Assembly: GCA_051453625.1 (NCBI GenBank)
Contig: JBOZIK010000001.1
Span: forward strand, 35,519,860-35,583,859
Direction: 5' to 3'
Length of the DNA: 64,000 nt
Source of the DNA: Welwitschia mirabilis
Lineage: Eukaryota
Below the pieces are notes generated by a model. The model was given only the letters and a program-made list of their open reading frames with translations, did no database searches and was not told where the DNA came from. This document shows positions 22,282 through 64,000 of the stretch, piece by piece (the stretch's first letter is position 1; every line of letters starts with the position of its first letter). The position numbers and the translations under genes were made by a program.

Positions 22282-22393
22282 AAGAGATTCAATTACTGGT
22301 TAAACATCACATCACACTTTTTGGAATGTCAGTATATGTTGAAATTTTATAAAGGTGATTGTGATATTTGTTTCCAAGCCTGATGATTATGAT

Positions 22394-22650: not shown

Positions 22651-22658
22651 ATATTGAC

Positions 22659-23652: not shown

Positions 23653-23759
23653 GAGATAATACTTTACTGACCTACTACACTAGAATGTGCTGGTTCAGCT
23701 TTCTCCTTTACTTTTCAATGTATTATAAAATTTCATTTGATATCCTATTTTTTTTAAAA

Positions 23760-33500: not shown

Positions 33501-33600
33501 NNNNNNNNNNNNNNNNNNNNNNNNNNNNNNNNNNNNNNNNNNNNNNNNNNNNNNNNNNNNNNNNNNNNNNNNNNNNNNNNNNNNNNNNNNNNNNNNNNNN

Positions 33601-36600: not shown

Positions 36601-38150
36601 TTGGAAAAAGCTCAAAAAAGTTAGTATAGTGATTTCTCTCTTGGCTATTTATAATGAAAGGCTTCTAGGGTAAGTATAGTTAAAAGCATGCTTCTAATGA
36701 CCACATGATGGAAATATAACAGATATAAAATTTCATTTCTGTTTTGGCCAGTCAACCCCTCAATCATTTGGTCAATCTTTCAATTGTCCAATCAACCCCT
36801 CTTAGTGCTATGACTTAAATAGATTACCCGAGTAAACTGTTCAGTTGTCCTAGTTTCTCATGACTNNNNNNNNNNNNNNNNNNNNNNNNNNNNNNNNNNN
36901 NNNNNNNNNNNNNNNNNNNNNNNNNNNNNNNNNNNNNNNNNNNNNNNNNNNNNNNNNNNNNNNNNGATCTAATATTCTATGCAAAGATTCAATAGATGTC
37001 AGTCCATCTGTGGTCAAGAATGCAATGAAAAGCTAGTACAATGATTAATAACTAGTTTCAAATGTTTGGCAAAAGCTCAAAAAAGTTATTCTAGTGATTT
37101 CTCTCTTGGCTATTTATAATGAAAGGCTTCTAGGATAAGTATAGTTAAAAGCATGCTTCTAATGACTAAATAATGGAAATATAATAGATATAAAATTTCA
37201 TTTCTATTCTGGCTAATTGACCCCTCAATCATTTGGTCGATCTCTCAATTGTCTAATCAACCCCTCTTGGTGCTATGACTTAAATAGGTTACCCAAGTAA
37301 ACTATCCGGTCATCCTAGTTTCTTATGGCTCCATGTCCAGTTGATCCCCAGGGTCTAGTCGACTATTTATCTGATCGCTTACATATCTATCTGGTCATTT
37401 ACTTATCCTAATAAAAATCCATTCTAGTTTTCTACATTAAATCCAATCAACTCCTTAAGTTTCTTATTCATCCTTTAATGATCAGCTCATGGATATCACA
37501 TGCATAATACTTAGNNNNNNNNNNNNNNNNNNNNNNNNNNNNNNNNNNNNNNNNNNNNNNNNNNNNNNNNNNNNNNNNNNNNNNNNNNNNNNNNNNNNNN
37601 NNNNNNNNNNNNNNGAGTAAACTGTTCAGTTGTCCTAGTTTCTCATGACTCCATTTTCCGTTGACACCTATGATCTAGTTGACTATTTATCCAGTCGCTT
37701 ACATATTTGTCTGGTCACTTACTTGTCCTGATAAAAATCCATTCTAGTTTTCTATAGTAAGTCTAATCAACCCCTCAAGTTTCTTGTCAATCCCTTAATG
37801 ATCAGCTCATGGATATCATGTGCACAATACTTAGGTTAAATCGATTCCTCATAGGTCTAATTGATCCCTTGATAATCTATTCAAGAGTACTAGTACTCAG
37901 GTTCATAGATCTAGTCGATCGCTCTAAATTCAGTCTAATTATGAGAGTTTACTTTAGGTGCAATTAACTCATTAAAAGTCTGGTTGACCTGTCAAGAGGG
38001 TAATTGAACTTGATAGGTTTTAGTGACTAAAATGTAAAATTCCTTACTTTAGATTTTGATCTACAAGTGATCAATATGTTTTGCACAAGATACATAAATT
38101 TTTCTTCATAAATAACATTAGTTTAACATCAATTGACAATACACAATCTA
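33601..38150 (-). mobile_element. SIRE-like copia, version 2 (5' half plus 5' LTR in gapped, partly duplicated pieces)
   Basis: 33601-36380 parallels ~30718-33500 and has the same mutated PBS (minus TGGTATTATAGC, 36010-36021). LTR starts tgtgagg at 36024. 36480-38150 matches 26905-28650. Confidence 0.85.
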
Positions 38151-38154
38151 ATAT

Positions 38155-39401
38155 AAAAAACTAGCCCAAATGTGTATCATGAAGGTCTTAAGAATTTATC
38201 TAAAAAATAGTGATGTATGTTTCAATTAGAGTTTTAAATTTAGATATAAATTCCTTTCTTCTCTAAGCTATGTAATATGTTTGAAAACTATTCTATGGAT
38301 AATATTTTTATTAAATTTAAAAAAAAATCACTTTTTAATGTTATACAAGAAATAAAATAATAGAATGAGTTGAAGATCTAACAAGCAAAACTAGATTAAT
38401 TACATAAAGAGGTCTCAATCTCAATTTTAAACAATAAAAGAAGTTCTAGATCAGAAATAAATTAAAAAACCTAGAATAGTAAAAAAAAAGTTTTACATAA
38501 AAAGTAGCCAAAAATAAGTAATAGAAATAGAAAAAATAGTTCAAAAAATAACCTTGAAAAAATTAGAAAAAAAGGAATTACAAAACACTAGATATAAATA
38601 AAAAATGTGTTCCTAACTATACATAATATTGAAAAAAAAATCTAAAAATAATGAAAATTACAAAAAGGAAAAGAGGGATGGATGTTTTTATCTCTATTTT
38701 AACTTCTCCAATTTTTATTCACTTTTTTATTTTTTGTTTTAATTACTTTAACTCTATTTAAGAAAAAACCAAAAACAACTTATTAGTCTTGTATACTAAA
38801 GACTAATATAGTAATGATATTCCTCATTAGAGATAAAATGATTAATAAAATAAAAAAAATAAAAGAAAATAAAGATAAGGACTAGTTAGAACATCACTGA
38901 AAGAGAACTCATATCACACATTCAAGAGTATAGAAAATGAAAAGTACTAAAATATAAATGCAAGAAAATAAAACATGTGCATGCTCTACTATATCTACCT
39001 TATTGTTATCCCTAGAAATCATGTCAAAAATATATTTGTAGTGAAATTTGGCTATGCTTGTATCTATTATTAATATCTGATAATGTGCATTATTACTCTA
39101 GGAATACAAATCTTACATTATTAAATCCAATTTTTACCAAATAAAATTAGGACTTTTGTTGTAGCATGTTCCTAGTGTCATTTTTTTCTTGGAATAAATG
39201 CAATATAATATTAATAAAGTTATGCAATACTTTTTTAGCAAAATATTTAAACAATATTTTAAGTTAAGAATGAGAATGAAAGAGAAGTTCAATAAATAAG
39301 ATCCTGGAAATGGAGCATAGCAGCTAAGTTCTAACATGAATATTTCATTAAGATAAGAGAACTCTATTCAATGATATATTATAAAGTTTCATAATAAAAA
39401 T
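38155..39401 (-). mobile_element. 5' leader, degenerate PBS and LTR edge of an older Athila-like element
   Basis: Minus TGACATGATTTCTAGGGA (39009-39026) resembles the tRNA-Asp PBS, mostly by transitions, and is followed by tgtagtg at 39037. 38160-38480 is homologous to 20700-21020 and 50870-51190. Confidence 0.45.
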
Positions 39402-43755: not shown

Positions 43756-46700
43756 TAGCCCCTCAGTTAGCCTTATCAGTACTTGACAAACGAAGTTGAA
43801 CAACTATGATTGTGAGCCACATTATATTAAATAAAAATCAATTTAGAAATTATAAAACGGGCTCAAAAATAATTTTTAAAATGTCACAGAGTAGGATAAG
43901 ACATGAAAATTAGATGACTAAAATTTTTACTTATGTAGAGTCACTAAGACAAGCTATTATCTGCCTAATTGTCTAGATGATAAAAGGGATGATAACCAAT
44001 TAAAAAGATTGAAAAAATAGAAGCCTACAAAATGTTTTTTAAATAGATACATATTAGCTCTTATTTAACAATTAATAACCCCCACTTATATTTGAGTATA
44101 TCATGAAAATAACAACATATGACATGTAATATTATCATAATAAAAAATGCCTTAAGTTATAAAACATACATAATAATTATAAACATAATTAAAAATGCTC
44201 AAAAATCATGTCTATAAAATCATTACTTTTTTAAGTATAATTCATGGAGGGAAGATACAAGGAATAATAAAAATATATATCACTCCCCTCATTGTGCTGT
44301 GATTAACTCCTGATGGATAGTAGGAACAAGTGAAGGTAGAGAAAATAAAGGATGCTCAAGATCTTAGGAAAATACTAGTCAAAAGTTGTTGTAATGCAAT
44401 GAATGATCTCATATCCCTATACTTTAATAAACTTTAAAGGGTCAACTGTCACACCATTCTCTATCTGTAGGATGTGGTGATATACATCAATGAGCTACTT
44501 CTTAGTTTGCTAAACTCTTCTCTCAATGATAGATATCCTATTTTAAAGCTCAATGAAGCATTATTTTATGATCTCTCTAAGATCCTAGAATATATTAACT
44601 AGGAATGTCTAAATTTGATCAATAGTAGTCCTAACTATAACTCTTTACAGCTAAGGTCTCTTTGCCTCTTTTGGAATGTGAATCCTGATGTCTTGTAGGT
44701 AGTAAGATGAAGTCTCTAAATCTATTAATCTCTACTATTATATAGGATCAGGTATAATAAAGTATTTGAATATTATTGAGAGAAGGCATGGATATTTTAG
44801 AGCCTGTAAATATTTATCCTTAATCATGAATCTGAGTCTCTTCTAAATAAAAGTTGAAAGGTCTAGCTGCTTCCTCTACCTGAATACTAATAAAATCTAA
44901 AGATATGCTATTATAGCATGACTGCTGTGGAAATGATAAGCTAATGTTATGAATTAACCCTCTATGAATGATGCAATAGGCAGATGTCAAATGTATAACT
45001 AAAACTCCCCTTGTATTACATATCTAATACTACACCATAAGTGTAATGGTCTTTTGTACCATTAGCTAAGTGAATATGTATACTCTTGATGTCATCTAAA
45101 CTAGTGATAGAAGTAATGTAACTCAATAGGATCAATACCTCATGGCCATCTATAGAAGCTATAATCATTTTAACTAAATGATCATGGGCATCTAATCACC
45201 TCTCAATGTGTATAGTATCATAGAAATCTCTGGTCTCTAAGGTAAAGTATGATCCATGGGCATCAATGGTTCATTTTAACTATAGATATATCAATCTATG
45301 ATTACCTATGGATCTATCCAACTCATATAGTCACAAAGTATCTCTCAATATGAATAGAAGCCATCTAGATCAACTAAGAATGTGCTTGTTGAGGTGGAGA
45401 ACATATAGGCATAGTGTGTTATATCATGAGTGGAACCAGAGGGCCTACATCCTACTCTATTGGCTTAACTTCTACCTCAACATACCTAGCTCTACATGTG
45501 TTTAACCTAATTAAACAAGAAAGTATAGTGTATCATGCATATTGAGTGGAAATTACAAAAATTATGTCTCATGGAAACTCTAAAATGACCTGATAAATTG
45601 ATTTTTATGGAGTAAAAATTATGAAAATAAGTTCTACTCTCCTCTAAAAAAAATACTATATCTTGTATTAGCTAATAAAGTAAATAAATCATACAAAAAC
45701 CATGAAAAATGGAAAACTACTAAAGTGGATCTCACATAAGGTCAAAAAATGAAAGTTCTCAAATGAAAAACCCAATTAAGTAAAAGCATAAACCTTATTA
45801 CAATATTCAATTTTTCTAAAATGATCATGTAAATCCAACTTATGGTCTATGAGAAAATAAATTTTAAAGATAAAAACCTAATTCTACCTCATAAAATGCA
45901 CAATTTCAAAGTTTGTGAAAAATACATAGTGAAAACTAAATTCATAAGTTCAAAATTGTAGAACATGAAAAATAAATAACATAGGTACAAAATATGCTTT
46001 TAAAGGATAAGAAATAATAGAAAAAGTTAAAAATAAGTGAGAGAATAAGAAAATACCTCATGTCAAAAATTCACCCAAATCATGTAATCTAGAGTACTAA
46101 ATTAGTGAGAGGGGGTTCCAAATTAGTGGTAGGTCCTAGCGTGATACATGTCTCATGAAGCAATGAAGTGAGAAGGATTAGAAATGGTAAAAAATGGTGG
46201 AAAATAAAGGCAATTCACAATTTTAACACATTGTCATCCACTCAAGTCATTCAAAAGATAGCCATGTAACTATCAGAAAAATATAGACTGCCATCCTCCC
46301 TATCATCTAGACAATTAGGCAGACAATGAATATTTTTTAAAATTTTGTAAAAATTAAATTTTGATAGTTGACAAATTATGTTTAGAGCTTCCTCTAGCAA
46401 TGTCAGATTTGAAAAGCAAAGATTTGGGGAATATTCTAACAAATATGGAATGTGAATGATTGAAATATTAAGCAATAAAAATGTAATAAGTGGAATGAAG
46501 CATGTTCATAGGTATCCAAAACACATTTCTTGATAAAATAATTATGAACTATGTGTATAACTCTAAAAGACTAAAAATAAACATTATAAAAATTACAAGG
46601 AAACTCATCTAATCAAGAAATCAGTTTTTTATTAAAAACTAAGTAAGAAAACTACTAAATGTTAAGGTCCTAAAATGATAAGAAAATATAGAAAAAAATT

Positions 46701-47110
46701 TGAAATAACTAACTAAATAATGAAAGGAAAATAAAACAAAAAATGGACAGAAGGAACATAAAGAAGATAGCCTACCTACCTTAAATTCTAACTTAGCAAA
46801 CTTCTATGGAAGAAATCATAACATCACATTATTTAAAATACATGATCAAATGTATGACCCTATAAAATTTCATTCAATAAATCAATGTTTATGATGATGC
46901 TAAAAATCAAATGCTCTAAACAATGAGTGATAAGATCAAAGAATTACTTAAAAATAAACTTACCTGCTAACATCTCAAAACATACATTTAAATCCTCAAA
47001 AGTGAAATGATCATGTGAAAAGTTTAAAAGTCTAAGAAATAAGTAATCCTTCTAATAATACCAAGAATAACACTAATTATATAGCCTTAAAGTTTTTATT
47101 ATTTTATTTT

Positions 47111-47268
47111 CCATGATGAGGGGAGTGCAATATAGTCAGAGAAGTAAGGGCCTATGAAGCATGGCTAACTGACCTCCTAATGGAATTGTCATAACTATTA
47201 TATCACACTGCTAAAGGCCCCTCTTAGGAAATTTGCCTTGATGTACTTACAGTAGGACATCACGGTGA
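47111..47268 (-). other. Conserved post-integrase motif, copy 5
   Basis: Counterpart of copy 3 in block B. Confidence 0.7.
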
Positions 47269-50200
47269 TTAGACTAGTTTAGATATAAAAAATCATGGTT
47301 TTATTTTTCTTTAATTTATTTTTTTTTTAAAAAATAAATTCGTCATGGTCATATGCCCTAAAATATAAAGGTGAAGTGGTGAAATAAAAGATAAAAAAGA
47401 ACATACCTAAATAACCANNNNNNNNNNTTCCTTTAAGGAAAATATAATAAATAAAGCATCTTCCTTTAAAATGAATTTTACAAATATGTAAATGTCATAA
47501 TATTGGGTGAATCCAATCTTACCACTGTAAAATGCCTAAGTATAAAGACTAGTCATGGAGATAAAAGAAATACATAAGTCATGTTTAAAAAATAATTCAA
47601 TGACATTATAACATCCTCAAAAGGAATAATCTAAGAGAGAATTTAGAAAATAATAGGGAGGAAGTCCTTCTCATTAAGGAGAACCTCAACATAAGTGCTT
47701 CTATCATGTTCAAGATTACATCAGAAGGTTGCTCGTATATTTTCAACATTTGTTCATTAACTTTCAGAATTTCTTTAGTGGTTAAGTCAGAAATCTTAAC
47801 AGAGCCATTAGAATGTACTTTCTTGACAAGGTAAGGGCTTAACCATTTTAAGCTCAACTTATTAGGTAGAAGATGTACTCTAGGATTATATAAAAAAACT
47901 AGTTGACCAGGTTCAAACTTCTTATGGGTTAACTTTTTATCATGTTTGAACTTATTTTGGGCTTTATGAATAAGCCGATAATGTATAGCTCAAGTTTGTT
48001 TTTCATCTAAATGATATAATTGAGATAAATAATTTTTAAGATTTTTTCTAAATTTACAAGATTAAGTTGATAGATAGAATGATAGGAATTATAACAAACA
48101 TTAATAGGTAAAACACAAACTTTATTATATACAAGTTCATAAGGTAAGAAACTAAGAGAATTATGTCAAGTAGTATGGTAAGCTCCAAGAACATCATTAA
48201 GTTTAAAATCCCAAGATTTCTCATTGGTAGAGACAAGTTTTTGAAGCATTTTTTTTTAAATTTCTCTATTGGCATTTTCAGCTTGTCCATTAGTTTGTGA
48301 ATCATAAGCACAATCTACTCTATGTTCTATTCTAATGGATAAAATAAGTTTTCTAAAAAGATGATTGATAAGATAAGTTCCCTAATCACTAATGATTATT
48401 TGAAAAAAGCCAAAACATTGAAAAATTTGAGTTCTAACAAAGTTACAAACAGTTTGGACATCATTTAAAGAAGTAGGAATTACTTAAACCTATTTAGTCA
48501 CATAATTAATAGCCACTAAGATGTAGTTTTTATCCTTAGAAAGTGGTTTAGTTGGATCTGTAAAATTGATTCTCCAATCATTGAAAGATTCACATTTAAT
48601 AATAGGTTTGAGAGGAATGTCTTGAGAATGTATAAGGCTACCATAACATTGACATGCATCACATCTTCTAGCATAATTAAAAGAGTCTTAAAAAAGGTTA
48701 GGTCAATAAAATCCAGAGTAAAGAACTTTCATTGCTATTTTCTAATCACTAAAATGTTCATTACAAATCCTACCATGATAAACATAAATGATATTTACTT
48801 TTTCCCATTCTAGCACATATTTTCTCATGATTTGGTTTTTCATCTATAATAAATATGTGGTTCTATCTATTCATAATCACTTATTCTATGGAAAAAATAT
48901 TTTCTCTGATTATAACTCCAATTATGTAGTGTTTTTAAAGTAATAAGATAATTGATAATATCAGAATACTAAGAAGTGAAATGATTTTAAGATATGATAA
49001 AAAGTTATTCATCTAGAAAAGAATCATTGATAGAAAGATCATCAGAAGAAGAAAGGCATAATAAATAATCTACTACATTGTTATATTTTCCTATCTTATT
49101 TGTGATGGAAAGATGAAATTCTTACATTAAGAGAATTTATCTAATCAATCTAGAATCAAAAACTTTCTTAGTTATTAAGTTTCTAATAGCTACATGATCT
49201 ATGTAAATGTTTGTATGGAAGCATAAAAGATAATGTCTAATATTATTGAGGTAAAAGATTATGGCTAACATTTCTCTCTCACTAGTTATATAATTTATTT
49301 AAGATTTGAATATTTCTTTATTATGATAAGATATAACTTTAAAATTATTTTCATATTTTTGTCCAAGCACCTCATCCACAACAATATTACTAGCATCACA
49401 CATTATCTTAAAATCCTTATTCCAGTTGGATTAAATTACAATAGGTGCGAAAGAGATTTTATGCTTAAATATATTGAAAGCAAGCTGATAAGATTTATTT
49501 CATTAAAATTTTTCTTTTTTCTCTAGTAACAAGTAAAGGATTTTACAAATTTTAGCATTATCTTATATGAAGTGATGATAAAAATCATAATGTCCAAAAA
49601 AAGATTGAATTTATTTAACATTGGTTGGAGGAGTTAAGTTTTTAATGATGCTTACTTTTTTAGGGTCCATGCTAATTCCTTTATTAGAAATGTAATGATT
49701 TAGGACTATTCCATTATCAACAAAAAAAATATCTTTTTATGATTTAAATAAACCATACTCTATGCATCTATCAAGGACTTTCTCTAATCTTTCTAAGATT
49801 TGGTTAAAGATTTTTCCAAAGATTGAGAATTAATCTATAAATATTTCTATCGAATGCTCTAACATGTTAAAAAAAATACCCATAATAGCATGTTAAAAAG
49901 TTTCAAGAGTGTTTTAAAGTCCAAAAGGAATTTGTCTAAAAGTAAATGTTCTAAAAGGTGAAGTAAAATTTGTTTTAGCCTAGTATTCACTAGCTACACA
50001 AACTTGATTATAACCACTATATCCATCAAGAAAGTAATAAAAAGCATGATCTTGAATTCTATCAAGTATTTGGTCAAGAAGGTTATAGGTCAATGATCTT
50101 CTTTCATGACTTTATTAAGTTTTCTAAAATCTATGAACATTCTTCATTTTCCATCTTTCTTTACTACCACAATTAAAGGATTAACCCATTCACTATCTGA

Positions 50201-51699
50201 TATAGCATAAATGATCTTGGCATCCATTAAATTAATGATTTCCTTCTTTACTACTTATTTAAGTGCTAGATTTAATCTCCTTTATAGTTGTATAATAGGT
50301 TTTGAGTTTTTCTTAAGATAAATTTTATGCTAAGTAATAGATAGAGGAATGTCTAATAAATCTTTATGATACAAAGTAGATACATTAACTTTAGAATTCA
50401 AAAGAGAGATTAAGATCAATTCTTATTTAGGAGAGAAGTTTTTATTGATTATTAAAGGTTTGTTTTGATCATTATATAAAAAAATATATTTCAATCTACT
50501 TAGATTCAGATTCAAATTAAGATTTTTAGTTTTTCTAAAAGATTCATCAAGATTGACCATTGTCTAAGATTGTCATCTAGATATTGTTGGGACTACTTTT
50601 CTCACAAATTTATATTTATGGTTTTGATTAATCTAGTTTTGCTTTGATTTTTGGATTTGGTTTAATACAATGAATATTATTATGTTACGCTCAAAATGTG
50701 AAAGGAGTTTAAAAACTCAAAATTTCATGATAAAATAATTTATTAAAAGTATGTTATAATCAAAACATATTGAGTATAGTTTGTATTGTAAATGGATTTA
50801 CAAATAAAGTAAAAAGATGAATAAAATTTACTAGATGCTCATATGGGTAAATACATGTATTTAAATAGCTAGCCCAAATGTGATATCATAAATGTATTAA
50901 GAATTTATCCAAACAATAGTGATGTAAATTTTGATCAGAGTTCAAAATTTAGATATAAATTTCTTTCATATCTAAGCTCTATGATGTTATTTAAAATCTA
51001 TTCTGTGGATAACATTTCTATTAAATTTAAAAAAAATTACTTTTCAATGTTATACAGGAAATAAAATAATAGAGGGAGTTGAAGATCTAACAATCAAAAC
51101 TAGATTAATTACATAGAAAGACCTTAATCTCACTTTTAAATAACAAAATAAGTTCTAGGTTGGAAATAAATTGAAAAATCTAGAATGAGTATCAAATATT
51201 GAGCTAAGAATTTTCTTATCATTATATTAGTTTTTTAATCTTCACTGATCTACTTGCATGCCTGTGATGCTGCTGTCCCTATGGCCTTGCCATTTACATG
51301 TGTTTTGTTGCTATTTTTCATCTATTTCTTTAATCTTCTACCTTGCTCTAATGCACATTGTTTCGTCTCCTGTCTTAGCTCTACATTTTCCCTCTGTGAT
51401 ATTTCTTCATCTCTATGTTTTTTGGTTGTGCGTTTACCCCTCTGATTTGTGTTTTTTCCCCCTCAATTCTTGATTGTTCCACCCCCTGATGTATTTCCAT
51501 TTTTTATTATTGTTCTTCCCTCAAGTAATGGCTGGGATGTAAGGATTGATTTCTTATTATGGTAATTTTATTGCTAAAATTAAAGATTATTAGTCTTTTT
51601 ATGTAGCTAATCTGAAAAACTTGACAAATTGATGTTGTGTCTATCGACATTTCCTCTTAAACGGGACTCCAAATGCTTTAACTTATTATCCTTTTCTTT

Positions 51700-52137
51700 A
51701 CACTCTTCCCAGTCCCTAGGTTTGTGGATAGCTTTAGTACCAACCAATCATTCTCATTTAACTGTGAATCATCCCTTGTAGTTTTCTTTGGAGAGATGCT
51801 CATTGATTTTATCCCTATAGTAGGGGATGCATCACTGGCTGATGCTCCTACCTTTAAGAAAGCTCCTGGGGATGCATCCACTAATGTTGATTCTACTTTC
51901 ATTGGAAAGGTTTATGTAGATAAGTTTGGTTACATTCTTGCTGATATTTTGGATAAAAATAATATAAATAATAAAGGCATGGATTTTGATACTAGTGTTT
52001 AAACTACACTAGCATTTGTTACATTAAGATCTGATGGTGAGCAAGAATTCATGTTCTATAGAAATCAAAGTGTAGACATGCTACTTATAGAGTTGGAACT
52101 TGAAGTTAATCTCTTAAAAATGGCTAAAATTTTACAT
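51700..52137 (+). pseudogene. FRK: Fructokinase processed fragment, copy B1 (cut by gap)
   Basis: [69 protein letters not shown]. Confidence 0.92.
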
Positions 52138-52504
52138 NNNNNNNNNNNNNNNNNNNNNNNNNNNNNNNNNNNNNNNNNNNNNNNNNNNNNNNNNNNNNNN
52201 NNNNNNNNNNNNNNNNNNNNNNNNNNNNNNNNNNNNNGATATGTGTTTTTTTTTTTTTAAGTCCTAGTTGTTCCATCCCCTGATGTATTCCCATTTTTTA
52301 TTATTGTTCTCTCCTCAAGTAATGGTTGGGATGTAAGGATTGCTTTCTTATTATGGTAATTTTATTACTAAAATCAAAGCTTATTAGCCTTGGTATGTAG
52401 CTAATCTGAAAAACTTGACAAAATGATGTTATATCTATCGACATTTTCTCTTAGACCGACCTTCAAATGCTTCAACTTGTTATCCTTTTATTTACACTCT
52501 TCTA

Positions 52505-53264
52505 AGTCCCTAGGTTCATGGATAGCTTTAGTACTAATCAATCATTCTCATTTAACTTGAATCATCCCTTGGAGTTTTCTTTGGAGAGATGCTCATTGAT
52601 TTTATCCCTACAGTAGGGGATGCATCACTGGCTGATGCTTCTACCTTTAAAAAATCTCTTGGAGATGCATCCACTAATGCTGTAGTTACAATTACAAGGT
52701 TAAATGGTGATTCTACTTTTATTAGAAAGGTTTTGGTTACATGCTTGCTGATATTTTAGATAAAAATAATATAAATAATAAAGGCATGCATTTTGATGCT
52801 GGTGCTCGAACTACACTAGCATTTGTTACATTAAGATCTGATGGTGAGTATTAATTCATGTTCTATAGAAATCCAAGTGTAGACATGCTACTTACAGAGT
52901 TGGAACTTGAAGTTGATCTCTTAAAAAAGGCCAAAATTTTACATTATGAGTCTATTAGCTTGATTACTAAACCTGGGAAATCTACATAATTAGTAATAAT
53001 GAAAATGACAAAGGATGCTGGGGTTCTTCTTTAATATGATCCTAATTTAAGGCTACCACTATGGCTATTAGTTGAGATAATCCATACAATTATTATAAGC
53101 ATATGAGATAAATTAAACAACATAAGGAAAAATGAAAACGAGATCACATTTTAACTAAAGATGAAGACCCTTATGATGATGCTATTATGTGTAAATGTTT
53201 CCATTCCAATCTCAAGTTACTTCTTATGACAAAAGGCCAAGATGGATGTAGGTATTATACAAAG
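52505..53264 (+). pseudogene. FRK: Fructokinase processed fragment, copy B2
   Basis: Same motifs through [55 protein letters not shown], ending GCRYYTK. Confidence 0.92.
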
Positions 53265-53389
53265 AAGCGCTTTAGTTATTGATGGAATACCACTTGCAAT
53301 GTCAGTATATGTTGAAATTTTATGAAGGTAATTGTAGTAGCTATTTTCTATCCTCATATTTTAGTAGATTATTGTAGTAATAGTAAGGG

Positions 53390-53757
53390 GAAGATGATGC
53401 TTATTTCTTTTTGCTTTGATTTGTTTTTTAGAGATCTTATGTAGTATAAGAAGCCTTCATTTTGACCATGTGATAAATCTTAAATTTGAAGATCATCATT
53501 TTGATACTAGTGTATCTTTGGATGACTCTCACAAAATTACTATTAGAGTTATGTCTCCCTATGGAAATAGTATGCACTTTGTAAACTTAGTGAAAACAGG
53601 TTATTTCTCTTTTATAACTTATGAAGCAGGTAATTACATGACATGCTTTTGGATGTATCATGCTCATTCTATAGTCATTTTTACCATTGATTTTGAGTCG
53701 AAGAATGAATTTCTTGCTAAATAGTAAATAAGAATTACCAAAAGGGAGGAAATTGAT
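53390..53757 (+). pseudogene. p24/emp24/GOLD-family (p24delta-like) N-terminal fragment
   Basis: SLHFD...SHKITIRVMSPYGNSMHF...KTGYFSFITYEAGNYMTCFW...TIDFE resembles the plant p24delta GOLD domain (HKI.V.VTSP.GN..H.....GQFAF...EAG.YMACF...IDF.W). Internal deletion after SLHFD. Confidence 0.8.
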
Positions 53758-53804
53758 AGCCTGATTTATTCTTCTATTCTTCTGCTCTTCCTTTGATGTG
53801 CGCT

Positions 53805-56800
53805 TTTAGATCTACAAGGTATTGGGGTTAAAATTGATGATGAGTATTAAGCCATTATTTTCTTGCGTTCTCTACTGAATTCCTATGAGAATTTTATTGA
53901 TAACATGTTGTACAATAGAGATAGTATATCTATTAGTGATGTGAAGGATGCTATGTAGTCTAAGGAATTAAAGAGAAGAGTCTCTAACCCTAAAGAAGAC
54001 ATTGCAAAAGTAGGTCTATTTGTTAGTAGAGGGAGGAACAATAAAAGAGATGGTGGAAGAAGAGGTAAGTTACATTCCAAATTGAGGGCTAAATCACTTC
54101 GATGTTTTCACTATAAAGAGAAAGGGTACATAAGGAAGAATTATCCACAGTGGAAGAAGGAAAACAACAGAAAGGAATTAAATAGTAATAATAGTGCTGT
54201 AATAGTATAGGAAAGCTCTAATGAAGTAGAGAGAAGTGATGTTCTGATTTTGCAAATACTTGGGTTTTGGACACTGGTGCATCGTATTACAAGACTTTTA
54301 CACACAATTCATTTACTTCCTTCAAGTAGTGAAATGGCAGTGTAATGTTGGGTGATGATGGAGAGCTTAGTATCAAGGGCAATGATTTTATGCATATTGA
54401 GATGCATAATTGAATAATCAGAACATTTGATGCATGGTATGTTTCTAATCTACAGAAGAATTTGATATCCCTAGGTATCTTAGACAAACAAGGATACAAG
54501 TGCTCTTGTGCAAATGGATAGCTGAAGGTTTCAAAGAATGCTATGATAGTAATGAAGGGTAAATTACAACATGAGATTTACATCTTAATAGATAATGTAG
54601 TGATGAGAATAGTGGAATAATGTGGTAACAAAATGATTGTATAGAATTATGGCATTACAGATTGGATCACATGAGTGATAAAGGAATGACAATATTAAGA
54701 AAACAAGGATTATTAGATTGAGCAGAAACTAGAAAGTTCAAATTCAATGAAGCTTGTATTATGAAAAATCAATGCATAGTTAAATTTAGTTTTGGTAGAC
54801 ATACCACTAAGGATATCCTTGAGTATGCTCATTTAGATTTATGGGATCCTTCTCCAATTGAGTCTCATGGCAGATGTAGGTACTTTATTACTTTCATTGA
54901 TGACTACTCCAGAAAGGTTTAGTTGTATTTTATAAAATCCAAGGATGAGGTGTTTGGGTAGTTCAAGGAGTGGAAGATTATGGTTGAAAAATAGACTAAA
55001 AAACAAATCAAGACACTCAGAATAGATAACAGGTTGAAATTCTATAATGCACTATTTGATGAGTTCTGTAAGAAATAAGGTATAGTGAGAAACCACACTG
55101 TATGGCATACACCATAGCAAAATGGAGTTATAGAATACATGAACCAAACACTCATGCAGCATGCTCGATGCATGTAACTAAATGCTAGCTTGTTAAAGCA
55201 ATTTTGGGTTGAAGCAGTTAACACTGCTTATTATCTGGTCTCCATCAACTGCAATTGATTTTGGCCTATCTATATAAGGGGTATGGTCTAGTCAAATTCT
55301 AATTATTTTAGCCTACCTATATTTAGTTATGCTACTTATGCTCATGTTAATTATGGTAAATTGGAGTTGAGGGTAATGAAATGCATACTTGTAGGATATG
55401 CAAATAGAGTTAAAGGGTATAGAATATGATGTAGTGAAAATAATAAAACTCCAAAATTTATCATTAGTAGAGGTATTACTTTTGATGAATCTACTATGTT
55501 TGGTCAGAAAGAGGAGCTGAGTCATCATGTAGACAATAAAGATCAAAGTGCTAGCTAGAAGGTGGATCTTAAAATTAAAGTTCTAAAGAGGATTACAAAA
55601 AATCCTGTATAATAGCCTAGGAAAGAGGAAGAAGAATAACAGAGTATAGCAGCAAGATCAAGGAGGGGAATTAAAAGACCTGTAAGGTATGCAGATTATG
55701 TTAGTATTGTTGATATTAACTCTATTGCATATGCCTTACTAGTGGAATAAAATATTGATTTTGATGAATCGAGATCTTACAAGGAGAAAATTGAAAGTAG
55801 AGAAGCATCTGAATGATTGATTGTAATAAATGAAGAATTAAGCCTCTTACAAAGAATAAAACCTAGGATTTAGTACCTCTACCAAAGGCTATGAAACCAG
55901 TATGATGCAAATGGATGTTTAAGAAGAAAGAAGGCATTCCTTGAGTTAAAGCACTTAGATTTAAGGCAAGTCTTATGGAAAAGGGTTTTTCATAGAAGGA
56001 AGGAATTTATTACCATAAGCTATTCTCATCAGTTGTAAAGCATAAAACTATTCAAGTTCTTCTAGCCATGATAAGTGCATTAGACTTGAAGTTGAAATAA
56101 CTTGATATTAAAACTACATTCTTACATGATAACCTAAATGAGTAGATTTACATGTCATCCTTGATTTTGAAAAGGAAGATCATGTATGTTTGCTAAAGAA
56201 ATACTTGTATGGTTTGAAGCAGTCTCCAAGGTAGTGGTATAAGAGGTTTGATGCATTTATGATTTCTTATGGTTTTATGTGCAATCAATCTAATAATTGT
56301 ATCTACTTTAAGAGACCTTTAGATGATTCCTATATATATTTGTTGCTATATGTGGATGACATGTTTATCGTAGCTAAGAACAAGGCTGAAATCAAAAATT
56401 TAAAGACGTTATTAAAAGGTGAGTTTGAAATGAAGGATTTGAATGCATCTAAGAAGATTTTGGGCATAGAAATTTCGAGAGATAGAAGTGTAGGTCTACT
56501 ATATATATTTCAATAGAAGTACATTAAAAAGTTATTGCAATCTTTCTAGATGTTTAATCTAAGATAGTTACTACTTCATTGGTAGCACACTTTAAACTTG
56601 ATGCTTGTGCGATACCTAATACAGTTGAGAAGAAGGATTACATGAGTACAATTCCTTACTCCAGTGTTATTGGAAGTATGATGTATGCCATGATATGTAC
56701 TAGGCTTTATTTAGCTCATGTAATCAGTGTGGTAAGCAGGTTTATGAGTAATCTAGGAAAATCTTACTAGGAAGTAGTTAAATGGATTATGCGGTATTTG

Positions 56801-57704
56801 AAAGATACGAGAAATATCTACTTGGCTTATGGTGATAATAAATCTATTGGTAATTTGATTAACTATATAGATTCTGACTATGCCAGAGATCTTGAAAGGG
56901 AAGATCCTTAACATGCTATATCTTCACCCTATATGGATGTGTCATTAGCTAGATGGAAACACTTTAATCTATAGTTTTTTCATCTATCATAAAAGCTGAA
57001 TACATGTAATTAACAAAAGGGGTTAAAGAAGGTATATGGTTGTATGGTCTTATTAATAGCTTAGGATTGAATGTTCAGAGATCTATCATCTATTATGGTA
57101 GTTAGAGTGCATTAGACATGACCAAGAATCAAGTCTATCATGAGAGATTAAAACATATTGATGTCAACCTAAATTTCATTAGAGATGTTATAGAGGATAA
57201 TAGGTTATTCATTAATAAGACAGCCATAGCAGAGAATCTAGTAGATATGTTGACAAAGCCATTACCTATAGAGAAGTTCAAGTATAGCTTGAACTTGGTG
57301 AATGTTCACATAGCATGAGGCCCTAAGGGGCATGAATGGTAGGGGTGAAATTTCTCTTAGTTTCTAGTGATTTGAGACAATTCAAGTTAAGGTGGAGAAT
57401 TGTTAAGAACCTTGAATTTTAGTGAATTGTTATATGTATTTTCTTTTGATGAATGGTTCGAATCATTAAATGTATTTTATTTTGATGAACAATTCAAATA
57501 ATTATATGTATTTTTTTCTAGAGTGACCCAAACCGGTTAGTTTATATATATGGTTCTAGGATTCATCATCTTGCAATAATTATTTTACTTGAGGAATAAG
57601 AAATCTCTCTTCCTACCCATGGACATAGGTCACATTGACTAAACCACATAAATCCTATGTATTCTCATTTATCTTCCATTTATATCTCCTTTTTTCTCAT
57701 AAGA
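53805..57704 (+). mobile_element. 5'-truncated Tork/Tnt1-like Ty1/copia (partial gag, PR, INT, RT, RNase H, PPT, one LTR)
   Basis: LQGIGVKIDDE (gag), WVLDTGASY (protease), DLW.PS..ESHG.CRYFITFIDDYSRKV (INT), LYGLKQSPR and LLLYVDDM (RT), KHIDV...DMLTKPL (RNaseH, stop 57318). PPT aaggtggagaat to 57400. LTR 57401-57704 with a deaminated cccgtggacgtagg...aaccacgtaaa motif. Confidence 0.92.
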
Positions 57705-57706
57705 AG

Positions 57707-57935
57707 TGGTATCAGAGCTAAGGTTATTGGCAGGTCTTAGGTTCAAGTCTTCCTAGTAGATTTTGGTTCATGTGAGTACTTGGCATGTGAATCGAGAGGG
57801 GAGATTATTATATATGTGATTTCCATGCCCAGCCTGACAAGTGAGTAAATGTAATGGATTCCAGTTTATCAGATTCCACTAATAGTCATGGCTTTTGATG
57901 TGATGGTAAAGGGTCCAATACCTATGTCTATGATA
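57707..57935 (+). mobile_element. PBS-Met, ~90-bp internal region, PPT and short LTR-like sequence (TRIM-like)
   Basis: Perfect TGGTATCAGAGC at 57707-57718 and GAGAGGGGAGA at 57794-57804. The following sequence is unlike the upstream copia LTR. Confidence 0.6.
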
Positions 57936-58274
57936 AACATGAATTTCTCTAGTGGAGTGCCCATTTCCATTTCCATGAAGTAAGGCATAATTCCAAGTGA
58001 CACTGCAGATATGAAAAGATTTGAAGAGACTACCAAATAGTGCTTTCTCTCATGATTCCTTTTGTCGATGGATGCATGACATGCTGCATCATGTACAAAG
58101 GGATCATAGATTTATTCCTTATGGGAATTGAAATAGAGGATGAACGGACTATTTGTAGAGTGATAGTAGATTAGCATCGTTAATTTTATTTTTAGTTTTA
58201 CTATTTTATGTTAATAAGACAATGGTCTCAAAGAAGTCCAAGCATCAAGAGATAATGAAAATCGATATACATCT

Positions 58275-58712
58275 CGTCTCCATTGAAAGTGCTCTTGTTT
58301 TTTTTTATTTGATCACAATGATCACATACTTCAATGATTTGTTATTAAGACATATATATGGATGCTATATTAGCCTTATCTTATCAAGGGTAGTATCAGA
58401 ATGCAGTGGAGCTAGTCTGTACTTATACATCATGGGAGTTCTTAGATGAAAGTGTCAGTTAACAAAGCTTGCTGATAACTCAATGTGATAATTTATGTAC
58501 AAATATTAGTAAGATAAAGAAATGGGGTTCTATGGTTATTTTGAATTCTCTTAATTTTCTTCTAATTGTAGTTGATGCAGCTCCAAAGGAAACAACACAT
58601 GCAATGCATTCATTTATTAATAATTCTATTTCGAATGAGTATGACAGTTTCTTGGGGTTTGGTAAAATGCTCCATTTGAATTTAGTAGGAATTAACAATC
58701 TAATGGAGTAGA
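58275..58712 (+). pseudogene. ACC: Homomeric acetyl-CoA carboxylase central-domain fragment, copy B (longer)
   Basis: IESALV.LFDHNDHILQ*FVIKTYIWMLY*PYLIKGSIRMQWS*S.L..SWEFLDE...KKWGSMVILNSLNFL...GKMLHLNLVGINNLM versus plant ACC1 VEDALVGLFDHSDHTLQRRVVETYIRRLYQPY..K.SVRMQWHRSGL.ASWEFLEE...KWGAMVIIKSLQFL...GNMMHIAIVGINNQM. Confidence 0.88.
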
Positions 58713-58730
58713 AACAAATAAGATATTGAC

Positions 58731-59718
58731 ATGGATAGGAAGAGACACAAGCTTAGATGGCACAGAAATAAAACATGAATTTTTCTCGTTTTACTTACTC
58801 TTTAGTATGATGCTCAACTGTTGCTTTTCAAATGCTTTACTAGAAATGAAGTCAGTGTAACATCTTCTGTACTTACTTGTAAATGTGCAAAGGTTATTTT
58901 TTCTTTAATATTAATTTGACAAGATGGAAGATTAGCAAAAATTAGGAAAGAATGGATACTTTTGGGTTCATTAGTAATTTTAGAACTTTTGACTACTATT
59001 TATGCTTTGTAGAATAGCATGTTACAACTTTCTTATCGAAATCTTGACTTTCTTATCTTCATAATAATTAACCAGACAAAGTTACTTTTCATCACTTTTT
59101 TTATGTAATTCATTTTATGGCATAAGTAGTTACTACAACAAATTGAGGCTCTATTTCTATTTATTGTAATGACTTTACTTCTCAGTATAGGAGAGGAAAC
59201 TAGTCATGGTTCTAAAGACATTGATCGTGAGTGAGAAATTTATTTTTGATGTCATAATTATGATTATTAATTCTATATTATCTAGAATTACATCCTTACT
59301 TTACCAATGGGTATCACAGGTTAAGAAAAGAAGCTTATAGTTAATGACCATTGTGATGTCTGTAGTTAAATGTTTGTATATGTTGGTAATCATACTGAAA
59401 TTACCTAATGGCAAAGCTATAAGAGAGAAAGTTCTCCTTTTTTCCCCTCTTTTTTGTGCTAGTTGGACACTTGCAACTCTTATCCCTATTTTTATGAATG
59501 AAATTGAAGGGATTTTAGTTGTAATTATTACTATGTATTCTAGTGGTATATGGAAGGGATTTGTTATTGTATCTCCTCTAATTGTGATAGCCTTCTTATA
59601 GTTTATATTTGATGGTATACCTTCTTTTATGTGCATACTGATGGCCTTACCTCTTATTATTACCAACATCATTATTTACCAAAAGTACCCCTATAAAGAA
59701 AAAGAAAATAAATTATAA
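58731..59718 (+). pseudogene. ROCK1: Full-length intron-less ROCK1-type nucleotide-sugar transporter copy B1
   Basis: Collinear with 22659-23652. ORF 59344-59601 has MT..MSVV...NGKAIR...WTLATLIPI..N...GILV..T....G.WKGFVIVSPLIV.A.L. Ends YQKYPYKEKENKL-stop. Confidence 0.88.
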
Positions 59719-60687
59719 GACATATCACTTTACTAGCTTACAACACTAGAATGTGTTGGTTCTACTTTCTCCTTTACTTTTTAATGTATCACAAAATTTT
59801 ATTTAATATCCTAGTTTTCTTTTTAAAAAAATTAAATAAGAGGATAAATAAAAGGGAGAAAGGCTAATGAAGTAAAAGGATGATGCATAAAAAGTGGAAA
59901 TGTAGAATTTATATATTATAGTTATTCCCCTTTTGATGTAAAGAAAAATATGAGCTTGACATCAAAAATATAAGAAAAAGGAATAAATGTCTTAATGAAG
60001 GTTTACATATGCAAGTCATTTTACTATAATGATGAGGATCCAAAATAATGAAAAGTGACTCAATTAAATGGTAAAGACATAATATGAATAAGCTTTAGAC
60101 ATGCATATGAGATAATTAAAAAAATGTATCATGGATGATGATGAAAGATGATAAAAGAATAGGTTCAATTGTATGAAACAGAAATGAGTTGAAATAACTA
60201 TATGGTAAAAAGGAGTTGGGTATAAAAAATGGATAAGTTAACTAAGAAGTGAAATTATCCTTAGATAAGTTTGTAAGTAAATGCAAAAAATGACTTTAAA
60301 ATAAGTAATTTTAAATATTAATAAAGATTAGGTAAAAATAGACAAACAAAGGCATGAAGAAGATTGATTACAATGTCTCTAAATACTAACCTAGCAATGT
60401 ATATTGGTATAAGTCATAAAACTATTTAATACCATTAATAATGGTTTAATGCTAAATAACACAGAGTTTCATGTAATTAGTACAATGATTATAAGAATGT
60501 TTATGGTCATTTTGCAAAGTATTAATATAATATTAGGATTATAACTCAATCCAATCATTGATTGTAATGGTAAATGACATCTTACTAACTTATCATTCAA
60601 TAATCAATATATTCTGAATTCTTACAAAATCATAGCTTTGGAGTTATGGAAAATCAAGTAAATGGAATTTTTAAAAGACATCATCTA

Positions 60688-60843
60688 TCATGATGTGAGG
60701 AGTGTAACCACTGTCAAAAGCATAAGGATCCATAAGCCAAATCCAGATCATAACCAACTAATACTTTGGTGGAGTTCCCATGGCTACCATATCACACTAC
60801 CAAAGGTGCCTCTTGGGAATATTTACCCTAGTGTGCTTGCAGT
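60688..60843 (-). other. Conserved post-integrase motif, copy 6 (cut by gap)
   Basis: gtggagttcccatggctaccatatcacactaccaaaggtgcctcttgggaatatttaccctagtgtgcttgcagt. Confidence 0.65.
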
Positions 60844-60943
60844 NNNNNNNNNNNNNNNNNNNNNNNNNNNNNNNNNNNNNNNNNNNNNNNNNNNNNNNNN
60901 NNNNNNNNNNNNNNNNNNNNNNNNNNNNNNNNNNNNNNNNNNN

Positions 60944-61702
60944 TAGGAAAGAATGGATACTTTTGGGTTCATTAGTGATTTTAGAACTTCCAACTACTAT
61001 TTATGTTATAGCTTTCTTATTGAAATCTTAACTCTCTTATCTTCACAATGATTAATCAGATAAAGTTACTTTTCATCACTCTTTTCATGCACTTCATTTT
61101 ATGGTAAAATTAGTTACCACAACAAATTGAGACTCTATTTCTATTCATTATAGCGGCTTTACTTCTCAGTATAGGAGAGGAAACTAGTTATGGTTCTAAA
61201 GACATTAATTGTGAATGTGAAATTCATTTTTGATGTTATACTTATGATTATTGATTCTATATTATCTGGAATTTCATCCTTACTTTGCCAATGGGCATCA
61301 CAAGTTAAGAAAAGAAGCTTATAGTTAATGACCATTATGATGTCTGTAGTTAAATGTTTGTATATGTTGGTAATCATACTTAAATTACCTAATGGCAAAG
61401 CTATAAGAGAGAAAGTTTTTCTTTTTTCCCCTCCTTTTTATGCTAGTTGGACACTTGCAACTCTTATCCCTATTTTTACGAATGCAATTGAAGGAATTTT
61501 AGTTGGAATTATTACTACGTTATCTAGTGGTATATGGAAGGGTTTTGTTATTGTATCTCCTCTGATTGTGATAGCCTTCTTATAGTTTATATTTGATGGT
61601 ATACCTCCTTTTATGTACACACTGATGGCCTTACCTCTCATTATCACCAACATCATTATTTATCAAAAGTACCCCTATAAAGAAAAAGAAAAGAAATTAT
61701 AA
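60944..61702 (+). pseudogene. ROCK1: ROCK1-type transporter copy B2 (5' part lost in gap)
   Basis: KEWILLGSL through LCQWASQVKKRS to YQKYPYKEKEKKL-stop. Confidence 0.88.
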
Positions 61703-61799
61703 GAGATATCACTTTACTGGCTTGCTACATTAGAATGTATTGGTTATACTTTCTCCTTTACTTTTCAATGTATCACAAAATTTCATTTGATATCCTAGT

Positions 61800-64000
61800 T
61801 TTATAAATAAAATGGAGAAAGGCTAATGAAGTAAAAGGATGATGCATAAAAAGTGGAAATGTAGAATTTATATATTATAGTTGTCCCCATTTTGATGTAA
61901 AGCAAAATATGAGCTTGACATAAAAAATATAAGAAAAATAAACATGTGTCTTAATCAAGGTTTACATATGCAAGTCATTTCACTATAATGATGAGGATCC
62001 AAAATGATGAAAAGTGACTCGATTAAATGGTAAAAACATAATATGAATAAAATTTAGACATGCATATGAGAGAATTAAAAAAATGTATCATGGATGGTGA
62101 TGAAAGATGATAAAAGAATAGGTTCAATTGTATGAAACAGAATTGAGTTGAAATAACTATATGGTAAAAAGAAGTTGGGTATAAAAAATGGATAAGTTAA
62201 CTAAGAAGTGAAATTATCCTTAGCTAAGTTTGTGAGTAAATGCAAAGAATGACTTTAAAATAATTAATTTTAAGTATTAATAAAGATTATGTAAAAAAAG
62301 ACAAACAGAGGCATGAAGGAGATTGATTACAATGTTTCTAAATACCAACCTAGCAATTTCTATTAGTATGAGTCATAAAACTATTTGATACTATTAATAA
62401 TGGTTTCATGCTAAACAACATAGAGTTTCATTTAATTAGGACAATGATTATAAAAATGTTTATAGTCATTTTGCAAAGTATTACTATAATATTAGGATTA
62501 TAACTCAATCCAATCAATGACTGTAATGGTAAATGACATCTTACTAACTTATCAGTTAATAATCAATATATTCTCAATGCTTGTGAAATCATAGATTTGG
62601 ATTTATGAAAAATCAAGTAAATGGAATTTTTAGAAGACATCATCTATCATGATGTGAGGTTTGTAACCAGTATCAAAAGCATAAGGATCCATAGGCCAAA
62701 GCTAGATTGTGACCATCTAATACTTCAGTGGAGTTCCCATGGCTACCATATCACACTACCAAAGGTGCCTCTTAGGAATATTTACCTTGGTGTACTTGCA
62801 GTAGGACATCATGATTTTTTTTTTGGGTGGTGTATGGTATTGATATTTTATTTTAACTTGAATTCCCTTTTTTTAATTTTTTTGAACATTAATTAATCAT
62901 TAGAATGATAAATTATAAGATTCACTAGTAAAGACAAGTATTGAATATAATACAAATTAATATTAGGACAACAAAACATGAGATATTGAATGTCATAGAC
63001 ATAGGAATGTCTTAAGATTGGGTGAAATCTAATATTACCACTAGAAATATCCCAAAGTAGAAAAAAGTACATTTATAAAAACTCAAATGTGGTTTAACAT
63101 AAGACCAAACAAAATCAATAATCAAATAAATAAATAACTTTAATTAAGAAATGCTATTAAGGAGTCATTTAGATAAGGTCCAAGGAAAGACTTACCTCTT
63201 GATCAAAGGGTCCTCCTACTCAATTTATTCTATCATGCTTATAGTACTATGATAAGTATTAATGTAATATTAACTATTATTGATTGACACTAAGTTTTCT
63301 TAGCATTGAAATTAATAACTGAATGAAGTCATTAGAAATGCACTTCTCTGTAAAGTAAGTATTTGACCACTTAGTATTTAACTTATTATAAGAATGTATC
63401 CAAACATCATGTAATAAAATGAAATAAATTGATTGAAGATAAATGTTGATGATGAGTTTAAGAAGAACTAAGCATAGAATGGAAATGGAAAAGTACAAAT
63501 GAATTATTGAAGAAAAATTAGTGGGTAAAACACACTATCATTAGATAGTAGAATAGATGTTTTGCATAAAAATGTAGCATTAAAGGATTTATGCAAAAGT
63601 GTAAGCTATAGGAGAGAGTGAATGGATGGTATCATAACAAAGGTAAGTATAGTATGCTATCATCGTCATCATCATCTTCTACAAGGGGAGCCACATGAAA
63701 TGGAATGTCAATTAGAGAAGCTCGATAAGGGATAAAACAATATCTACTAAGAATAAATGGCACTTAATAATTACCAACATATAACTCTACTAGAATCTAA
63801 CGCATATGGTCAATCATGAGCTGTAAAACTCAAACAAACAAAGAAAACATGAAACCTATGTAACATATAAAAACATGCTATTCTAAATAATAAATAATTG
63901 CATAGATGTATGTCACATTTTATTTTGAATGAAATAGTAATAATAAATGCATGAGACGAGTAATGAAAACATAGTAAAAAGGATGTGAATTATGAATTTT
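61800..64000 (-). mobile_element. 3' part of the non-autonomous Athila-like element, block B (also 59830-60843)
   Basis: Collinear with 23760-25960. Motif at 62647-62813. ORF 63277-63498 ends in an integrase-tail-like KWSNTYFTEKCISN..VN. Confidence 0.6.
62647..62813 (-). other. Conserved post-integrase motif, copy 7
   Basis: Counterpart of copy 4 in block B. Confidence 0.65.

Follow-up and report, generated by a model that had tools for sequence, protein, structure and literature searches.

A decayed chimeric cassette of four intron-less host-gene copies and retroelement sequence in Welwitschia mirabilis, probably formed by reverse-transcriptase template switching

A stretch of 64,000 nucleotides (nt) of the Welwitschia mirabilis genome (GenBank assembly GCA_051453625.1, contig JBOZIK010000001.1, positions 35,519,860 to 35,583,859 of the forward strand), referred to here in its entirety as the window, contains a cassette in which copies of four unrelated host genes – encoding a fructokinase (FRK), a p24 protein, a protein resembling acetyl-CoA carboxylase (ACCase) and a ROCK1-type nucleotide-sugar transporter – lie together with pieces of retroelements. 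We conclude that the cassette is probably the decayed fossil of one old chimeric complementary DNA (cDNA), or possibly of two abutting cDNAs, generated by serial template switching and later duplicated as DNA. The analysis draws on the window sequence, public protein libraries, the literature and one mapping of public reads, and follows a preliminary description of the segment from 51190 to 59830. The components of the cassette, in the order in which they occur, are as follows (aa, amino acids; LTR, long terminal repeat; PBS, primer-binding site; CDS, coding sequence).

51772-52137, + strand: FRK pseudogene piece, version B1, aa 77-207 (tblastn, Pfam PfkB), ended by the scaffold gap at 52138-52237
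52562-53264, + strand: FRK retrocopy, aa 76-314 of a 397-aa plant fructokinase, collinear (tblastn)
53398-53721, + strand: p24 N-terminal fragment (Pfam EMP24_GP25L, 26.7 bits against a cut-off of 25.9, E 6.6e-6, profile positions 34-99 of 182)
53809-57315, + strand: degenerate Ty1/copia element of a high-copy family, from gag to the end of pol (Pfam; DNA word depth 200-1400)
57325-57345, + strand: purine-rich tract directly before the LTR-like block
57346-57699, + strand: single LTR-like block of 354 bp, TG...CA, with 36-bp tandem repeats (DNA word depth 700-840; unique in the window)
57707-57718, + strand: initiator tRNA-Met PBS, exact over 12 nt (motif scan)
57884-57918, + strand: very high-copy segment of 35 nt with loose ends (DNA word depth 2180-4170)
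58240-58720, + strand: fragment of an expressed host gene, ACC-like, 5' limit approximate (RNA reads at 58265-58838)
58731-59718, + strand: complete ROCK1-type nucleotide-sugar transporter CDS, a pseudogene (phmmer, tblastn)

Two of the host pieces are collinear with the corresponding proteins over spans that leave no room for introns, as the preliminary description had held. At 52562-53264, 239 aa of FRK are accommodated in 703 nt, with two frameshifts, four in-frame stops, an end at the motif GCRYYTK and weak homology for ~30 nt beyond each side; the FRK of a second copy of the cassette in the window, copy A (21576-22281), shows the same collinear fit to aa 76-314. For ROCK1, aa 29-334 are collinear on 58782-59715 (306 aa in 934 nt; all by tblastn) and are preceded by an in-frame ATG at 58731, with seven in-frame stops in 311 codons and one frameshift. 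Among 252 candidates, 68 plant fructokinases match a 115-aa frame of copy A at E<=1e-5, the best at 70% identity, and copy A gives PF00294 (PfkB) at E 9e-16, which together with the tblastn fit upholds the earlier reading of a fructokinase ending at GCRYYTK, now as a pseudogene fragment of that family. A phmmer search with 59341-59715 (one stop written as X) returned 101 matches at E<=1e-3, with Nuc_sug_transp (PF04142) present in all eight that were scanned, and the best full-length match is a 334-aa protein named UDP-N-acetylglucosamine transporter ROCK1 / CMP-sialic acid transporter 5. The ROCK1 pieces of the window gave no direct Pfam match at E<=0.1, and a word-indexed protein search with them was also empty; the full-length collinear match to proteins named ROCK1 nonetheless places the piece in this family, and the full-length CDS reported earlier stands, as a pseudogene. 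Plant ROCK1 genes are multi-exon. Exon counts for FRK genes are 4-7 in cassava and 2-9 in other species (PMC5713366, PMC5319016). FRK and ROCK1 are accordingly intron-less copies of messenger RNA (mRNA), partial in the case of FRK, where the introns of the parent genes are those presumed from other plants.

The p24 piece is an open frame of 108 codons with out-of-frame ATGs at 53394 and 53397 just 5' of it. It exceeds the Pfam gathering score only just, and has no match in the PDB; the assignment to p24/GOLD proteins made previously holds at the level of the family. The ACC-like piece derives from an expressed gene, since RNA reads of the parent cover 58265-58838. The parent has one extra G after position 58427 in 49 of 56 reads, and the homology reaches 5' of 58466, such that what had been described as a separate piece of no known affinity before the ACCase is largely the 5' continuation of the same fragment. 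The name of this piece is less secure. Its translation is similar, in short motifs around SWEFL, KWG.MVI and GINN.M, to the central part of plant homomeric ACCase, and the parent read runs on as LLQDSGDED, a likeness that is a lead only. Neither ACC_central nor any other ACCase match was found in Pfam (single open reading frames, and read-through translations with X at stops), in the atlas or in the PDB, and literature searches with the motifs found nothing; the word-indexed protein search yielded 136 candidates of which none scored, under an upper limit of 2000 aa that excludes full-length plant ACCases. The ACCase central domain of the preliminary description is thus not confirmed by any database. 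Its statement that this piece and ROCK1 are only ~20 bp apart agrees with the measured spacing of 10-24 nt.

Contigs of two DNA sets and reads of two RNA-seq sets were mapped on 52238-60843 at a likeness of at least 85%, and the RNA reads fall into four blocks that correspond to the four host pieces.

52525-53385: FRK, depth up to ~57 per strand
53386-53672: p24, depth ~3-4
58265-58838: ACC-like, depth ~12-27
58839-59699: ROCK1, depth ~1-2.5

Nearly all of these reads are 85-95% alike to the window and carry fixed differences from it, so they come from expressed parent genes elsewhere; those at least 99% alike number 1 of 698 and 2 of 1225 in the two sets, and any transcription of the cassette itself in the two RNA samples is slight at best. 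None of the 15 joints listed, of 129, is supported by RNA, from which it follows that the mature parent mRNAs are collinear with the pieces. The parent mRNAs continue with sequence unlike the window at 53265 (FRK), 53677 (p24) and 58706 (ACC-like), and these three pieces end within coding regions.

The same reads illustrate how the cassette has decayed. The window has A where the RNA reads have G at 139 and 150 positions in the two sets, and T where the reads have C at 126 and 131, with the reverse changes being rare (window G for A, 21 and 23; window C for T, 19 and 23). CpG dinucleotides are strongly depleted: FRK has 2 where 18 are expected, and ROCK1 has 3 where 21 are. This asymmetry of C-to-T and G-to-A changes, taken with the loss of CpG, points to deamination-type decay of a silenced sequence.

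The retroelement component lies between the p24 and ACC-like pieces. Pfam was run on stop-to-stop frames of the + strand (87 over 50504-63732, 89 over 1-26500 and 73 over 26500-50500) and on 110 of the - strand over the whole window, and the matches in the cassette are PfkB, EMP24_GP25L and a collinear series of copia domains, all on the + strand; the copia and all four host pieces lie on +, in keeping with the head-to-tail arrangement on one strand noted before. The domain order Retrotran_gag_2, Pol_BBD, gag_pre-integrs, SH3_retrovirus and RVT_2, together with the PBS at 57707, identifies a truncated member of the Ty1/copia group that is missing its 5' LTR and the N-terminus of gag. Its gag begins at profile position 112 of 172 (53809), positions 1-111 being missing, and p24 lies within 90 nt, so that host retrocopies abut a discontinuous LTR retrotransposon whose open reading frame is partly replaced. 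Self-blastn found no second copy of 53336-58465 within the window, and a 5' LTR is lacking, which bears out the earlier account of a copia that starts mid-gag without one.

Behind the copia lies the lone LTR-like block, with the purine-rich tract to its left and the PBS to its right. The block has no second copy, as a flanking 5' or 3' LTR, within the window, whose end cuts off the right-hand copy of the cassette block (copy B). The PBS, for which we used what we take to be the initiator tRNA-Met motif, is the sole exact match among 10 matches in the window at two or fewer mismatches, where 2.81 are expected. No gag N-terminus follows it, and a simply (circularly) permuted copia is unsupported. 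The preliminary description placed a TRIM-like unit here; a search of 57200-58500 found no terminal direct-repeat pair around the PBS and purine tract beyond the 36-bp tandem units, and that interpretation is not sustained. The 35-nt segment at 57884-57918 is followed elsewhere, in other copies and in RNA reads, by CAAT and the same PBS, and is thus the 3' end of another LTR family. Between this scrap and the ACC-like piece is a low-copy stretch of ~320 nt (57919-58239) with no RNA coverage and no family or Rfam match, which may be a fifth captured piece or filler.

A chimeric origin through RNA, as was proposed at the outset, is well supported by the collinearity of FRK and ROCK1 and by the parent-mRNA reads on the host pieces. 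Serial template switching fits in particular, because the 3' end is missing from three of the four host pieces, every piece is in sense orientation, and they abut their neighbors within ~10-130 nt. ROCK1 and p24 begin near their start codons, as if the enzyme had reached the 5' end of the RNA and then jumped. These four features – the 3' losses, the common orientation, the abutment and the starts near ATG – fit template switching, and none of them fits the alternatives considered below.

Under the proposed mechanism, reverse transcriptase would have copied ROCK1 mRNA from its 3' region to ~10-24 nt from the start codon and switched to an internal stretch of a second, ACCase-like mRNA, then to LTR-retroelement RNAs (the copia and the scrap of another family), then to a p24 mRNA over its 5' half and lastly to fructokinase mRNA; we infer this order from the arrangement of the pieces. 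The acting enzyme might be the copia's own within a virus-like particle, or that of a long interspersed element (LINE). The cDNA would have entered the genome without a normal LTR pair, never becoming a functional gene, and would then have been silenced and decayed by deamination-type transitions. Copies A and B would stem from a later event in which at least 12 kb, cassette included, were duplicated as DNA, and a subsequent 5.1-kb loss from copy A would have removed p24 and the copia along with the 5' part of the ACC-like piece. We also entertain, tentatively and with a good deal of doubt, the stronger proposal that a single unbroken minus-strand cDNA, made over six or more templates, runs from FRK to ROCK1, with the lone LTR recording an R-to-R transfer in mid-path: the enzyme would run off the 5' R of the copia RNA, the canonical R-to-R transfer would leave the order purine tract, LTR and PBS, and the product would enter the genome with no integrase involved, at a break for instance.

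Several observations weigh against template switching in the form proposed. No flanking LTR pair, target-site duplication or clear poly(A) was found around the cassette, and the position of the lone LTR-like block in mid-cassette, between purine tract and PBS, is unlike a simple LTR-mediated retrocopy. The copia piece could be a later and separate event. The ACCase identity is putative and serves as a lead rather than as a test. Homology goes ~10-30 nt past three of the loose ends, as judged by eye; these ends are partly local divergence, and the junctions are consequently known only to within tens of bases. Finally, the scaffold is unreliable here, with diverged overlaps at its gaps, and the contigs listed bridge only some of the junctions.

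This last point bears directly on the number of copies in the window, and concerns the following segments.

30718-33500: gap overlap, equivalent to 33601-36385 (self-blastn)
52238-52944, + strand: gap overlap, probably an unmerged contig overlap, repeating 51444-52137 at 87% identity and beginning exactly at the gap edge (self-blastn)
60944-62802, + strand: gap overlap repeating 58943-60843 at 90% identity and beginning at the gap edge, with ROCK1 aa 84-323 at 60948-61666
21576-23616, + strand: copy A of the cassette, with FRK at 21576-22281, the 3' part of the ACC-like piece at 22394-22650 and ROCK1 at 22734-23616

The window contains 14 runs of N, ten of which are of exactly 100 N (those at 13302-13401, 33501-33600, 52138-52237 and 60844-60943 among them). 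At eight of these ten, self-blastn shows that the sequence up to the left edge recurs from the right edge at 83-91% identity; the gap at 1942 has a like pattern with an offset of 78 nt, and at 3220 the pattern is absent. The two versions differ mostly by substitutions, with few indels and transitions exceeding transversions by ~2:1, and they have the look of diverged alleles, homeologs or paralogs rather than of read error. As judged from the sequence, the repeats that flank the gaps are probably unmerged overlaps of diverged contigs, and the scaffold seems to switch back and forth between diverged versions of one locus, so that copy numbers along it appear higher than they are. One such gap, 52138-52237, lies within the segment of the preliminary description, where it had passed unnoticed, with an 87% overlap on its two sides. 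Because two gap overlaps lie inside or beside the cassette, FRK appears twice (51772-52137 and 52562-53264) and part of ROCK1 appears again at 60948-61666.

Copies A and B have a different relationship. They belong to blocks (A, 10157-25960; B, 44392 to the window end) that are ~83% identical over at least 12 kb by self-blastn, including at least 7 kb of common flank upstream and at least 4 kb downstream; both blocks carry antisense gypsy RT_RNaseH debris on the minus strand (17749-17907 and 49140-49298; Pfam). With kilobases of non-cassette flank in common, the two arose by DNA-level block duplication, plausibly in tandem, and not by retrotransposition of the cassette. The ACC|ROCK1 junction is present in both, which indicates a single origin. 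Where copy B has 5.1 kb, copy A has 32 bp, lacking the equivalent of ~53366-58465 (p24 and the copia, and with them the start of the ACC-like piece), with ~2 nt of common sequence at the deletion junction; because what is missing extends into the ACC-like piece at its 5' side, we infer that A is the deletion derivative. Mismatches between A and B at the first, second and third codon positions amount to 0.198, 0.179 and 0.149 in ROCK1 and to 0.169, 0.170 and 0.121 in FRK, and the lack of a third-position excess indicates that both have been free of coding constraint since they split.

These relationships speak to the idea, advanced in the preliminary description, that the cassette is a multi-gene capture vehicle that was copied at least three times, in effect a non-autonomous retroelement. 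The window does hold three versions of part of ROCK1, a PBS and LTR-like block are present inside the cassette, and the reads contain further structural variants, such as a contig that joins 58684 to 59594. But the flanks to either side of A and B match for kilobases outside the cassette, and the third version begins exactly at a gap edge, like the overlaps at eight of the ten 100-N gaps, so that dispersed copies with the same junctions and different flanks are not seen. DNA word depth is 0.2-23 per bin in the host pieces (single contigs ~5-6) against 200-2000 in the copia and LTR-like part, from which the host pieces are of low copy number. No LTR pair, target-site duplication (looked for as shared 9-mers between candidate flanks) or convincing terminal inverted repeat was found, and almost no RNA reads are at least 99% alike to the window. 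We therefore view repeated retrotransposition of such a vehicle as improbable, and the claim of three copyings falls with it. The contig joining 58684 to 59594, which is single and of low likeness and has 15 other letters between these positions, may represent a cassette variant without most of ROCK1, or may be spurious.

A second alternative is that independent processed pseudogenes and a copia came to adjoin by chance in a nest of transposable elements. The region is indeed a scrapyard of such elements, with gypsy and copia debris and several repeat families, and ROCK1 taken by itself could pass for a normal processed pseudogene of full length, an A-rich 24-mer lying at 59964, 246 nt past the stop. 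A 3' end would be expected in each of several independent retropositions, whereas the FRK, p24 and ACC-like pieces have neither 3' ends nor poly(A), and a single orientation runs through all the pieces, with abutment within ~10-130 nt; moreover, 22 such A-rich tracts occur in the 64 kb, and by DNA depth a repeat already begins at this one. An accumulation of separate events is thus unlikely, and we give the same low standing to capture of exon pieces at the DNA level, by a DNA transposon (Pack-MULE, CACTA or Helitron) or as repair filler DNA. Capture of gene fragments by transposable elements is massive in plants (PMC13477047) and capture at the DNA level very common (PMC13317346, PMC13477047), and copy B runs past the window end, so that the true ends of the unit may lie elsewhere. 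Captured genomic DNA would carry introns, which these spans lack, and the cassette contains retroelement parts rather than a transposase. The best inverted-repeat pair around copy A is 23 nt long, 83% complementary and of low complexity, and no convincing terminal inverted repeats were found. An assembly artefact, with junctions made by mis-joining or by cDNA contamination, is the least credible explanation, for although the 83-91% identical overlaps at eight of the ten 100-N gaps show that the scaffold mixes diverged copies, the cassette is ~10% diverged from the parent mRNAs and riddled with stops, unlike contaminating cDNA, A and B independently carry the ACC|ROCK1 junction, and contigs from other runs match the cassette with 0-2 differences across that junction as well, including one of 708 nt, from a run under a second organism label, with 0 differences over 58124-58831.

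The surroundings of the cassette are AT-rich (GC per 2 kb of 0.16-0.33) and contain many repeats. A second copia-type element, unrelated to that of the cassette, occupies 26912-38150 on the minus strand, with RVT_2 at 30262-30450, Pol_BBD at 31914-32177, LTR-like ends at 26912-28652 and 36479-38150 that are ~75-79% alike, and an interior doubled by a gap overlap. A very abundant repeat at 60274-60843 (also at 24200-24760 and 62445-62814; word depth 3800-30000 in both DNA runs) is distantly related, at ~59-62%, to a family at 1425-3177, 4516-6021, 15243-16483 and 46631-47325. Members of this repeat family at 15243-16483 and 23949-25137 were considered as an LTR pair; they are only ~59-62% alike, a divergence too great for a single insertion when copies A and B remain 83% alike, and the pair was rejected. 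A dispersed element of 330 bp is present in three copies at 83-84% identity (20689-21019, 38151-38481 and 50859-51191), the last of which ends exactly at the start of the segment delimited in the preliminary description. PBS-like motifs on the + strand at 25587-25598 and 63627-63638, with 1-2 mismatches to the initiator-tRNA-Met PBS, lie ~1.9 kb 3' of ROCK1 in both block copies and suggest that another LTR element begins there. No structured RNAs were found in 44000-64000 (Rfam, E<=0.1), and no tRNA genes were found.

Multi-gene chimeric retrocopies are already known from maize and animals, and the cassette is a further case. The maize LTR retroelement Bs1 contains three transduced host gene segments (PMC13317346), and resembles the cassette in having partial, sense-oriented segments of several host genes within retroelement sequence, a low copy number and switch points common to the copies (PMC13317346, PMC5131818); Bs1, unlike the cassette, is LTR-flanked, transcribed and translated, whereas the cassette has no LTR pair, is dead, and holds four host pieces with one complete CDS. 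From animals, Tan et al. (2016) report chimeras formed by LTR-mediated retroposition, one of which, the mouse 'Super' retrocopy, joins four genes and an Alu; in these, as here, internal retrocopies abut a discontinuous LTR retrotransposon with a partly replaced open reading frame, mRNAs are partly copied and several parental genes are represented at one locus (PMC5131818). Those chimeras are further defined by microsimilarity at the switch points and by coexisting 5' and 3' LTRs (PMC5131818). Decay of ~10-17% blurs the junctions of the cassette, and paired LTRs were looked for in the window and not found. A tripartite pseudogene of Magnaporthe, reportedly made by LINE-mediated template jumps, shares the head-to-tail arrangement of transcript copies of which the 3'-most is the most complete (PMC2104539). 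The cassette differs from LINE-mediated chimeric retrogenes in that it includes a copia and in that no LINE sequence, target-site duplication or clear poly(A) was found. Complex LTR-retrotransposon insertions, which Sabot and Schulman reportedly attributed in 2007 to template switching, resemble it in that internal sequence flanks an LTR, with a purine tract to the left and a PBS to the right; the cassette departs from them in that outer LTRs are absent and no gag N-terminus follows the PBS.

The cassette is a clear case, in a plant, of a single locus at which four unrelated host genes are represented by intron-less copies alongside retroelement sequence. The matches to FRK, p24 and ROCK1 at this locus are to pseudogene pieces, and are a warning for annotation. 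With no sign of function – it is silent, decayed and of low copy number – its value is that of a mechanistic fossil, whose internal anatomy (a copia without its 5' end, a lone LTR with a PBS behind it, and pieces that start near ATG) could inform how template switching proceeds, and also how cDNA enters a genome without integrase. If the reading of the cassette as one continuous cDNA is true, no larger multi-gene retrocopy has been described in a plant, and the cassette would preserve, as few natural cases do, the path taken by a reverse transcriptase.

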